From the sequence record MK327931.1: a DNA stretch of 64,000 nt; one strand, 5' to 3'. Under the pieces are notes generated by a model. The model made no database searches. It saw only the letters and a program-made list of their open reading frames with translations, and had not been told where the DNA came from. Made by a program: the position numbers and the translations under genes. Of this stretch, positions 31,495 through 31,527 are shown piece after piece. This DNA comes from Escherichia phage vB_EcoM_G17. Positions within the stretch are counted from its first letter, which is position 1, and each line of letters opens with the position of its first letter.

Positions 31495-31527
31495 ATTATA
31501 GCACACTTTTCTGTTTTGTTCCAAAAA
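31495..31527 (-). promoter_or_regulatory. early promoter with extended -10 (TGTGCTATAAT)
   Basis: minus-strand GTGTGCTATAAT; the same motif recurs at 43581, 53611 and 58918. Confidence 0.5.

Follow-up and report, generated by a model that had tools for sequence, protein, structure and literature searches.

A two-part promoter motif precedes DNA-replication genes in an Asteriusvirus phage of Escherichia coli

Escherichia phage vB_EcoM_G17 (sequence record MK327931.1) was analyzed over a stretch of 64,000 nucleotides, referred to here as the window, which is part of the genome of an E. coli phage of the genus Asteriusvirus (RaK2-like jumbo myovirus group, genomes of ~350 kb). The element under study lies on the minus strand at 31495–31523, directly upstream of a small gene (31233..31466), and related elements occur before genes for DNA replication elsewhere in the window. 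The G+C content of the window is 33–37%, and its genes lie almost exclusively on the minus strand. Bases 29000–34000 share 100% identity with Escherichia phages vB_Eco_slurp01 and Sharanji, and when the window is set against Sharanji positions 111631–175630, every base is equal from ~position 3660 on. Positions 1–3660 form a mosaic patch among small open reading frames (ORFs), with indels and substitutions relative to Sharanji, while the other 60 kb are identical. The Sharanji annotation was applied to the window, and the whole Sharanji genome (350 kb) was assembled for a genome-wide scan. Gene labels originated from an ORF-based model, in which some starts are over-extended, and were verified against the Sharanji annotation. 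For conservation, five relatives were examined over their syntenic 41.5-kb replication modules, namely fEgEco12 (E. coli), Munch (Salmonella), EJP2 (E. coli), CBB (Pectobacterium), and RaK2 (Klebsiella).

The element belongs to a recurrent motif. An initial annotation of the window had described an extended −10 element recurring on the minus strand at 14113, 31495, 43581, 48435, 53611, 53687, and 58918, and all seven occurrences were confirmed. The sequence is TGTGCTATAAT at 31495, 43581, 53611, and 58918 and TGTGATATAAT at 14113 and 48435, whereas the site at 53687 reads AGTGATATAAT, one base off TGTG[AC]TATAAT, to which the other six conform exactly. In the window, TGTGMTATAAT has 7 exact matches versus 0.35 expected, all on the gene strand, and none of 100 shuffles attained 7. 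With one mismatch permitted there are 8 matches versus 2.9 expected, again on the minus strand throughout. A distance of 20–90 nt to the gene start had also been claimed; it applies to six of the seven sites, and not to 53687, which lies 163 nt from the annotated start (Table 1).

TGTGCTATAAT in fact forms the downstream (extended −10) half of a promoter with two parts, which stands at the head of clusters of DNA-replication genes. Aligning the sites reveals a second conserved block, the heptamer TGGGACA (variants TGAGACA, TGGAACA, and CGGGATA), which starts exactly 23 nt upstream of TATAAT. The motif as first described was thus incomplete, consisting of the −10 half alone, with the −35 box of the studied promoter falling just outside the reported interval of 31495–31516. 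An iterated position weight matrix (PWM) applied to the 350-kb genome converges on aaaaa..TGGGACAa-N11-(T)GTG(A/C)TATAATg, including an A-rich, UP-like stretch upstream of the box. Among the PWM sites, G occurs at −14 in 94% and T at −15 in 87%, and each position of TATAAT is conserved in 90–97%. The frequency of G at box positions 2–4 is 0.72, 0.63, and 0.79, in a genome of 34% G+C. The box lies at about −35 to −29, and the 16 bp that separate GGGACA from TATAAT reproduce the geometry of the phage’s own canonical TTGACA promoters.

A motif scan of the full genome, proposed in the initial annotation as a check, was run with this PWM and returned 39 sites scoring 16 bits or higher, every one of which is on the gene (minus) strand, the plus strand having none. 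About 0.5 sites would be expected at 14 bits or more, and a clear gap in scores extends down to ~11 bits. As a control for circularity, the PWM was retrained solely on the 26 sites outside the window. With this version, 13 sites on the minus strand of the window score 15 bits or more and no site on the plus strand reaches 12 bits, the mean null maximum being 12.2 bits. A degenerate bipartite pattern, GRGAYA-N13-TGNTATAAT, gives 5 matches versus 0.01 expected. The reading of the motif as a promoter is borne out in that the sites are strand-specific, intergenic, and far above chance in number, and other genera retain them at orthologous positions while their flanks diverge.

Ten of the window sites are intergenic (first base of TATAAT at 14118, 20870, 31500, 37197, 43586, 48440, 53616, 53692, 58923, and 62511), and three further candidates are intragenic (1877, 27585, and 28087). 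All are collected in Table 1 with other features of the region. Three intergenic members (20870, 37197, and 62511) were missing from the original list; they were overlooked because their extended −10 deviates.

Table 1. Promoters, candidate promoters, corrected genes, and ORF-free stretches in the window and, where stated, elsewhere in the Sharanji genome.
Feature	Position	Strand	Promoter elements	Context	Score (bits)	Relatives
Studied promoter	31495..31523	−	box TGGAACA (31523–31517), 11-nt spacer, extended −10 TGTGC (31505–31501), TATAAT (31500–31495)	28 nt before ATG 31466	37.3; 31.6 with outside-trained PWM	
Promoter	14113..14141	−	TGAAATG; TGTGATATAAT	45 nt before gene 13723..14067, then GroES-like and clamp-loader (dnaX-like) genes	25.5; cross-validated 19.9	
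Promoter	20865..20893	−	TGAGACA; GGTGATACAAT	34 nt before gyrB (18866..20830), then gyrA	cross-validated 25.3	EJP2 (locus L011 40731, before gyrB)
Promoter	37192..37220	−	TGAGACA; AATGCTATAAT	13 nt before ATG 37178, PD-(D/E)XK nuclease gene	cross-validated 32.5	fEgEco12, Munch, EJP2, CBB (locus position ~25.3 kb)
Promoter	43581..43609	−	TGAGACA; TGTGCTATAAT	29 nt before primase gene (42496..43551), then replicative helicase		fEgEco12, Munch, EJP2, CBB (locus position ~18.9 kb)
Promoter	48435..48463	−	CGGGATA; TGTGATATAAT	34 nt before gene 47972..48400		5 of 5 (locus position ~14.0 kb)
Promoter, proximal of tandem pair	53611..53639	−	TGGGACA; TGTGCTATAAT	87 nt before gene 52471..53523 (annotated gp32-type single-stranded DNA-binding protein in fEgEco12 and CBB)	cross-validated 31.1	
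Promoter, distal of tandem pair	53687..53715	−	CGGGACA; AGTGATATAAT	163 nt before gene 52471..53523	cross-validated 32.6 (best in window)	
Promoter	58918..58946	−	TGGGAAA; TGTGCTATAAT	66 nt before ATG 58851, RNase H-like 5′–3′ exonuclease gene	cross-validated 23.1	5 of 5 (in CBB, the published Porf_272)
Promoter	62506..62534	−	TGAGACA; TGAGATATAAT	64 nt before gene 61710..62441	cross-validated 22.4	
Candidate internal site, status uncertain	27580..27608	−	CAGGACA; GGTGATATAAT	in rnhA; 340 nt before recD/dda-type helicase gene	cross-validated 20.9	
Candidate internal site, status uncertain	1872..1900	−	TGGAAAA; CCTGCTATAAT	in small ORF; 117 nt before start 1754	25.3	
Weak candidate, probably not functional	28082..28110	−	CAGGACG; TGGGGTATAAT	in folA	cross-validated 15.0 (within null-maximum range)	
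Canonical promoter (6831)	6826–6854	−	TTGACA/TTGACT-N17-TATAAT/TACAAT	before gp274		
Canonical promoter (8048)	8043–8071	−	TTGACA/TTGACT-N17-TATAAT/TACAAT	before TelA-like gene		
Canonical promoter (9254)	9249–9277	−	TTGACA/TTGACT-N17-TATAAT/TACAAT	before gp276		
Canonical promoter (25011)	25006–25034	−	TTGACA/TTGACT-N17-TATAAT/TACAAT	before infC (IF-3)		
Corrected gene	31233..31466	−		77 aa; start ATG 31466, preceded by GGAGAAGAAG		
Corrected gene	57865..58851	−		328 aa, 987 nt; start ATG 58851, preceded by AAAAGGA		
ORF-free stretch behind variant site	segment L006 15903–16737 (Sharanji 191533–192367)					
ORF-free stretch behind variant site	segment L004 30816–31465					
ORF-free stretch behind variant site	segment L003 34818–36710					

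The same type of promoter stands before the genes for the 5′–3′ exonuclease, ssb (as a tandem pair), primase, and the PD-(D/E)XK nuclease, as well as after nrdB and after the gene for a UvsW-type helicase, at orthologous positions in fEgEco12, Munch, EJP2, and CBB. RaK2 has orthologous sites at four of these gene junctions, and a further shared junction of the class lies before the frd cluster. The two tandem promoters (53611–53715) are 76 nt apart, and the pair is kept at ~8.7–8.9 kb in the same four relatives. In a six-genome alignment of the 31500 junction, only the start codon and the Shine-Dalgarno region remain fixed besides T.TG.TATAAT. The gene at 61710..62441, behind the promoter at 62506..62534, corresponds to a syntenic 732-nt gene annotated as a sliding clamp in fEgEco12.

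The two halves of the motif behave differently in the relatives, in that the −10 half is invariant and the −35 box drifts by clade. The box is TGGGACA or TGAGACA in Asteriusvirus and fEgEco12, TGAGA(C/T)A in EJP2, TGGGACA in Munch (often 1 nt farther from the −10), TGAAACG or TGGAATG in CBB, and TGAAC(A/G) in RaK2. It differs even between two phages of E. coli, TGGGACA in Sharanji versus TGAGAYA in EJP2, and in none of the six lineages does it converge on TTGACA, despite hosts that are all enterobacterial.

The conserved junctions also bear on gene starts. Two starts in the ORF track, 31496 and 58902, had been judged probably wrong for lying within 20 nt of a −10, and the judgment was right on both counts: ATG 31496 is located inside TATAATG, and TTG 58902 follows its −10 by 16 nt. 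Being inside TATAATG, ATG 31496 cannot be on a transcript begun at the 31495 promoter; in addition, it has no Shine-Dalgarno sequence. TTG 58902 would be ~9 nt from the predicted 5′ end of its transcript. The downstream ATGs at 31466 and 58851 are preceded by Shine-Dalgarno sequences as claimed (GGAG and AAGGA, respectively), and the Sharanji record annotates the genes as 31233..31466 and 57865..58851. Orthologues of the first gene are 234 nt long in EJP2, Munch, fEgEco12, and CBB and 243 nt in RaK2, and the orthologue of the second is 987 nt long in all five relatives. ATG 31466 lines up in all of the six genomes except RaK2, which is offset in the alignment.

Several individual sites have features of their own. 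At 37178–37220, a Shine-Dalgarno sequence (tAGGAGt) directly abuts the −10 (37197–37192). With the −10 only 13 nt from ATG 37178, any transcript from the 37197 promoter would have a leader of a few nucleotides and lack a Shine-Dalgarno sequence. The arrangement TATAAT(a)taggagtaca at this nuclease promoter is kept in fEgEco12, Munch, EJP2, and CBB. At 48447–48468 (minus strand), a hairpin, CAGCGGG-ATAAA-CCCGCTG (−14.3 kcal/mol, z −3.55), holds the box CGGGATA in its loop and stem. Since this hairpin ends the UvsW-type helicase gene, terminator and promoter overlap, and the same overlap is present in fEgEco12. The internal site at 27580..27608 is kept solely in the close relative fEgEco12, which coding constraint could account for. 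Two 11-mer matches on the minus strand, at 1775–1785 (TGTGTTATAAT) and 21474–21484 (TGTGATATAAT), are probable non-members, as they are without the conserved −35 box and the latter is intragenic. At 60384–60415, a strong bidirectional terminator hairpin (14 pairs) separates the convergent genes 59684..60373 (plus strand) and 60420..61145 (minus strand).

Promoters with the drifting box, termed variant promoters here, exist alongside a second, canonical class in the same genome. Canonical promoters have the form TTGACA-N16/17-TATAAT, are usually A-rich upstream, and often carry AGTACTG as a conserved spacer element. Some 40 copies are clustered at 15–37 kb and 59–97 kb of Sharanji among arrays of small ORFs whose function is unknown, and four occur in the window (Table 1). 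The tested sites differ from this class both in the box, which is GGGACA or GAGACA rather than TTGACA, and in their location in the replication module. Genome-wide, the variant class precedes, among others, genes for gyrase, primase-helicase, ssb, RecA/UvsX, and the clamp, genes for ClpA, ClpP, a DNA methylase, and a gp55-like late sigma factor, the gene that lies upstream of polB, the thyA cluster, and a tRNA cluster. A 35.8-bit variant site (Sharanji 97172–97200; segment L004 47161–47200) is located directly before the genes for tRNA-Ser and tRNA-Arg, such that the class would drive tRNA genes, too. The late sigma gene, Sharanji gp368 (segment L006 20422–21261), is annotated as hypothetical and was identified here by its match to phrog_12791 (E 2e-154) and 74% identity to CBB_244; a variant site precedes gp368 and likewise its CBB counterpart (Porf_244). 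The sigma-70-like gene of the phage, gp182, has canonical promoters upstream of it, and in none of the genomes examined was a variant site found before the sigma-70-like gene.

The class to which a promoter belongs is conserved for each gene. At infC, for example, the promoter is of the TTGACA type in the window, fEgEco12, Munch, CBB, and RaK2, that is, in five lineages out of six, while at the replication genes the variant box is retained across genera. Selection thus keeps the two classes distinct, and this speaks for a difference in their use. ATAAATA motifs of the late type are found on the plus strand at 58953–58959, 59017–59023, and 44598–44604, before the (structural) genes that start on this strand at 59070 and 44642. 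The first of these motifs and the promoter at 58918–58946 on the minus strand are arranged back to back, and the same pairing occurs in CBB (Porf_271/Porf_272).

The initial annotation had called the motif an early promoter, a label that is not supported: a separate canonical class occupies the small-ORF regions and the sigma operon, and the motif class fronts genes for replication, recombination, nucleotide metabolism, the Clp protease, tRNAs, and the late sigma. The set of genes behind the variant class is that of a middle or delayed-early class, and the variant sites are most likely middle (delayed-early) rather than early promoters. In RNA-seq of the distant relative PA5oct, the early transcripts are those of small uncharacterised ORFs, and genes for DNA metabolism and replication follow at the middle and late time points. 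No transcript-start data for enterobacterial RaK2-like phages were found in the literature searched, so timing and transcription starts are inferred here.

Motifs of this kind have been predicted before in related phages. In CBB, a “divergent RpoD-like” motif, Promoter 1, with the sequence TGAAACG...(A/G)TGNTATAAT, was predicted with MEME (Buttimer et al. 2017, PMC5259590, Table S6). It comprises 18 sites, 11 of which are in the DNA-synthesis region and one of which is before the late sigma gene (PMC5259590), and the same motif was noted for Cronobacter phage GAP32 (Abbasifar et al. 2014, cited in PMC5259590). CBB also has an RpoD-like class with an UP element in its small-ORF region and an ATAAATA late class; the three predicted classes, with the same gene associations, are present in both CBB and GAP32 (PMC5259590). 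The sites described here share with Promoter 1 a 29-nt layout (a 7-nt box followed by N and (A/G)TGNTATAAT) and the association with DNA-synthesis and late-sigma genes, as is apparent when CBB Porf_235 (TGGAACGACCTAAAAAAATGTGCTATAAT) is compared with window 31523–31495 (TGGAACAAAACAGAAAAGTGTGCTATAAT). The PWM, built from 39–40 sites, gives TGGGACA-N11-GTG(A/C)TATAAT, in agreement with the layout of the class, which is a TG(A/G)(A/G)A(C/T)(A/G) box, an A/T-rich spacer of 11–12 nt, and (A/G/T)TGNTATAAT. The window sites stand upstream of DNA-synthesis genes (gyrB, primase-helicase, ssb, exonuclease, clamp, and nuclease), and genome-wide 39 of 39 sites are on the gene strand. Moreover, CBB Porf_272, 282, 290, 300, and 307 are positional orthologues of window sites 58923, 48440, 43586, 37197, and 31500, respectively, and Porf_312 corresponds to the region upstream of frd. 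What differs is the box, TGGGACA or TGAGACA here versus TGAAACG or TGGAATG in CBB. The Asteriusvirus sites are therefore further members of a known, computationally predicted class. No promoter description for Asteriusvirus was found in the literature searched, and the Sharanji and RaK2 papers are silent on promoters.

The motif also resembles promoters of more distant systems. With the extended −10 (TGn) promoters of sigma-70 and the TRTG “−16 region” of Gram-positive bacteria it shares a TG at −15/−14, one base upstream of a near-consensus TATAAT and often expanded to TGTG, together with a poor −35 hexamer. In the cellular promoters the −35 is unconserved, whereas here a specific, non-TTGACA box is maintained at a fixed distance across genera. 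Middle promoters of phage T4 combine a MotA box with a sigma-70 −10, are activated by sigma appropriation through AsiA and MotA, and precede replication, nucleotide-metabolism, and tRNA genes. The variant class is similar in that a phage box replaces the −35 beside a host-type, often extended −10, and in that it would form a tier between sigma-70 early and gp55 late promoters. It differs in the box itself, TGGGACA at −35 to −29 versus TTTGCTTTA or (a/t)(a/t)(a/t)TGCTTtA centred at −30. A further difference lies in the proteins: no MotA homologue and no convincing AsiA were found, and RaK2-like phages have instead a sigma-70-like protein that brings its own region 4. Promoters served by phage sigma factors are known for phiEco32 gp36 (tAATGTAtA) and phage 7-11 gp47 (GTAAtg-N16-aCTA), and the sigma of phage 7-11 possesses a region 4 and acts on a bipartite promoter (PMC8948821). 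The likeness proposed here is that a phage sigma would redirect the host core enzyme to a phage-specific class while early genes depend on host sigma-70; unlike in those phages, the −10 equals the host consensus, and the present class is known by prediction. According to Iyer et al., all group 2 jumbo phages encode sigma factors, probably to recruit the host polymerase.

On this basis, we favor the reading that the variant sites form a distinct middle-type promoter class with a phage-encoded reader, most likely gp182, and give it a probability of roughly 0.55. The host RNA polymerase core would initiate 6–9 nt downstream of TATAAT, with region 2/3 of a sigma-70-family factor reading the TATAAT/TG part. 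The TGGGACA box would stand in for the host −35 and be read by a specificity determinant encoded by the phage, for which the likeliest candidate is region 4.2 of gp182, itself presumably made from a canonical host-type promoter. Transcription would then proceed as a cascade in which host sigma-70 serves the early TTGACA promoters, including that of the phage sigma gene, the TGGGACA class subsequently provides the replication genes and the gp55-like late sigma, and ATAAATA promoters finally express the structural genes.

Gp182 has sigma regions 2, 3, and 4 and aligns to residues 373–578 of E. coli sigma-70, and the sigma genes of fEgEco12, Munch, EJP2, CBB, and RaK2 are 60–35% identical to that of Sharanji. 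The recognition helix of region 4.2 in the phage sigmas has diverged from the TRERIRQIE of E. coli and is preceded by an insertion. Its sequence is SRSSIHRKY in Sharanji, SRTSLHRCY in Munch, NRCTIHRRY in EJP2, SKATLSRRY in CBB, and VRGTLHYKF in RaK2, with ARSSLHRKY also represented among the six, and it varies between clades roughly in step with the box. The asymmetry of the box fits a monomeric reader, and three motif classes would pair with three sigma factors. A more specific version of the model, which we advance tentatively and at somewhat less than even odds, holds that the −35 box (TGGGACA, TGAGAYA, TGAAACG, or TGAACA by clade) is read by, and co-evolves with, region 4.2 of the phage sigma while the −10 stays at the host consensus, and that host sigma-70, the phage sigma-70-like factor, and the gp55-like sigma act in turn on the host core enzyme, a cascade of three sigmas that would replace the MotA/AsiA system of T4. 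A helix-turn-helix activator like CBB_511 was not found in a Pfam scan of the nine proteins that flank the sigma gene. In CBB, EJP2, RaK2, and Munch (segments L015–L018), a terminator hairpin with a T-run is located directly before the ribosome-binding site of the phage sigma gene and may serve as a read-through control of sigma dosage; Sharanji and fEgEco12 are without it.

A number of observations weigh against a phage-encoded reader. The covariation between box and helix was assessed in six related lineages and is anecdotal. The TGTG-extended −10 is a perfect extended −10 for host sigma-70, and such promoters function without contact to a −35, so the host holoenzyme alone could fire these sites from the first minute. 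All six phage sigmas have Val in place of E458 and are without W433/W434, residues tied in sigma-70 to TG recognition and melting, which makes it less obvious that they read GTGnTATAAT; their region 2.4 also varies between clades while the −10 stays TATAAT. Hybrid sites that combine TTGACA with GTGATATAAT occur at Sharanji 243988 and 244082, and several PWM matches are intragenic and of uncertain function.

A rival view, which goes with the early label of the initial annotation, is that the sites are true early promoters used by unmodified host sigma-70 holoenzyme through the extended −10, with GGGACA tolerated as a 4/6 match to TTGACA and no phage factor involved. We regard this as rather unlikely, in spite of the optimal TGTGnTATAAT, the residues missing from the phage sigmas, and the hybrid sites. 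GACA is common to GGGACA and TTGACA, the spacing is 16 bp, a generic scan lists several of the sites at 10/12 matches, and the UP-like stretch upstream would also suit sigma-70. However, G is selected at box positions 2–4, where T would improve sigma-70 binding, and the box stays distinct from TTGACA in six lineages while TTGACA persists at infC and other genes. The box consensus is unlike even between phages that share one host, the genes downstream are those for replication and the late sigma rather than host-takeover ORFs, and the replication genes of PA5oct are not early.

Improbable, too, is a T4-style mechanism in which sigma-70 reads the extended −10, an anti-sigma factor alters or blocks its region 4, and a MotA-like monomer binds TGGGACA. 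The architecture is T4-like, with an asymmetric box for the −35, a strong (extended) −10, and replication genes and tRNAs downstream, and residues 1–56 of AsiA marginally match Sharanji gp456 (genome-wide E about 0.01–0.05). In gp456 (segment L008 4238–4804), which lies behind a canonical TTGACG-N17-TATAAT promoter, residues 120–175 are 30% identical to AsiA 1–56 over 56 aa. This match was confirmed neither by Pfam nor by a sequence search of solved structures, however, and T4 MotA has no tblastn or phmmer match in the genome, sequence searches being insensitive for such small proteins. The box is unlike the MotA box TTTGCTTTA, and under this mechanism no promoter class would fall to the conserved, sigma-70-like gp182. 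Finally, chance matches to an A+T-rich consensus, without function, would be in keeping with a generic sigma-70 consensus scan, which is unenriched in this DNA (100 matches versus 90.5 expected from shuffles) and as such is uninformative as a detector here. We hold this explanation to be barely credible and consider it already refuted by the statistics and the conservation, that is, by the excess of exact and bipartite matches (7 versus 0.35 and 5 versus 0.01), the 39:0 strand bias, the cross-validated recovery of sites, and the conservation of orthologous positions in five other genera. The preferred reading remains a middle-type class with a phage-encoded reader.

Some further features of the genome were observed outside the window. 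Three strong variant sites are followed by 0.5–1.3 kb without a plausible ORF or annotation (Table 1), and one of them is the best-scoring variant site of the genome (40 bits, Sharanji 192253). An Rfam search of the three stretches returned nothing at gathering score; they may represent non-coding RNAs of the phage, and non-coding RNAs have been reported for PA5oct. Terminator-promoter cassettes are located at Sharanji 59666, 61080, 62362, 66857, 69552, and 72976 (segment L004). In these, a hairpin, GGGTTGACTTCGGTCAGCCC, with a T-run carries a TTGACT −35 in its stem, and the −10 follows 17–18 nt later (TATAAT in four cases, TATGAT, and TATACT). The hairpin sequence is also in the published terminator list of CBB, as Torf515/518/520 (PMC5259590). 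At Sharanji 17–37 kb and 64–97 kb (segments L003 and L004), many canonical promoters share AGTACTG just before TATAAT and a transcribed start of agtttACATCAAGG, which may reflect duplicated cassettes or a regulator site.

At present, the motif is solid, if unsurprising, as a regulatory element, and its clade-specific box may be read by a phage sigma. In practical terms, the motif is a reliable marker of transcription-unit boundaries in Asteriusvirus genomes, whose records list almost no regulatory features, and it aids both the correction of start codons, two of which are in the window, and the search for unannotated transcripts. It also yields a sharper model, amenable to testing, of gene timing in a 350-kb phage that lacks an RNA polymerase of its own, in which host-type early, variant-box middle, and T4-like late promoter classes would be matched by three sigmas. 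If it is true that a phage sigma reads the variant box, then the boxes of the different clades would constitute natural orthogonal pairs of sigma and promoter (−35) that work on the core polymerase of E. coli.

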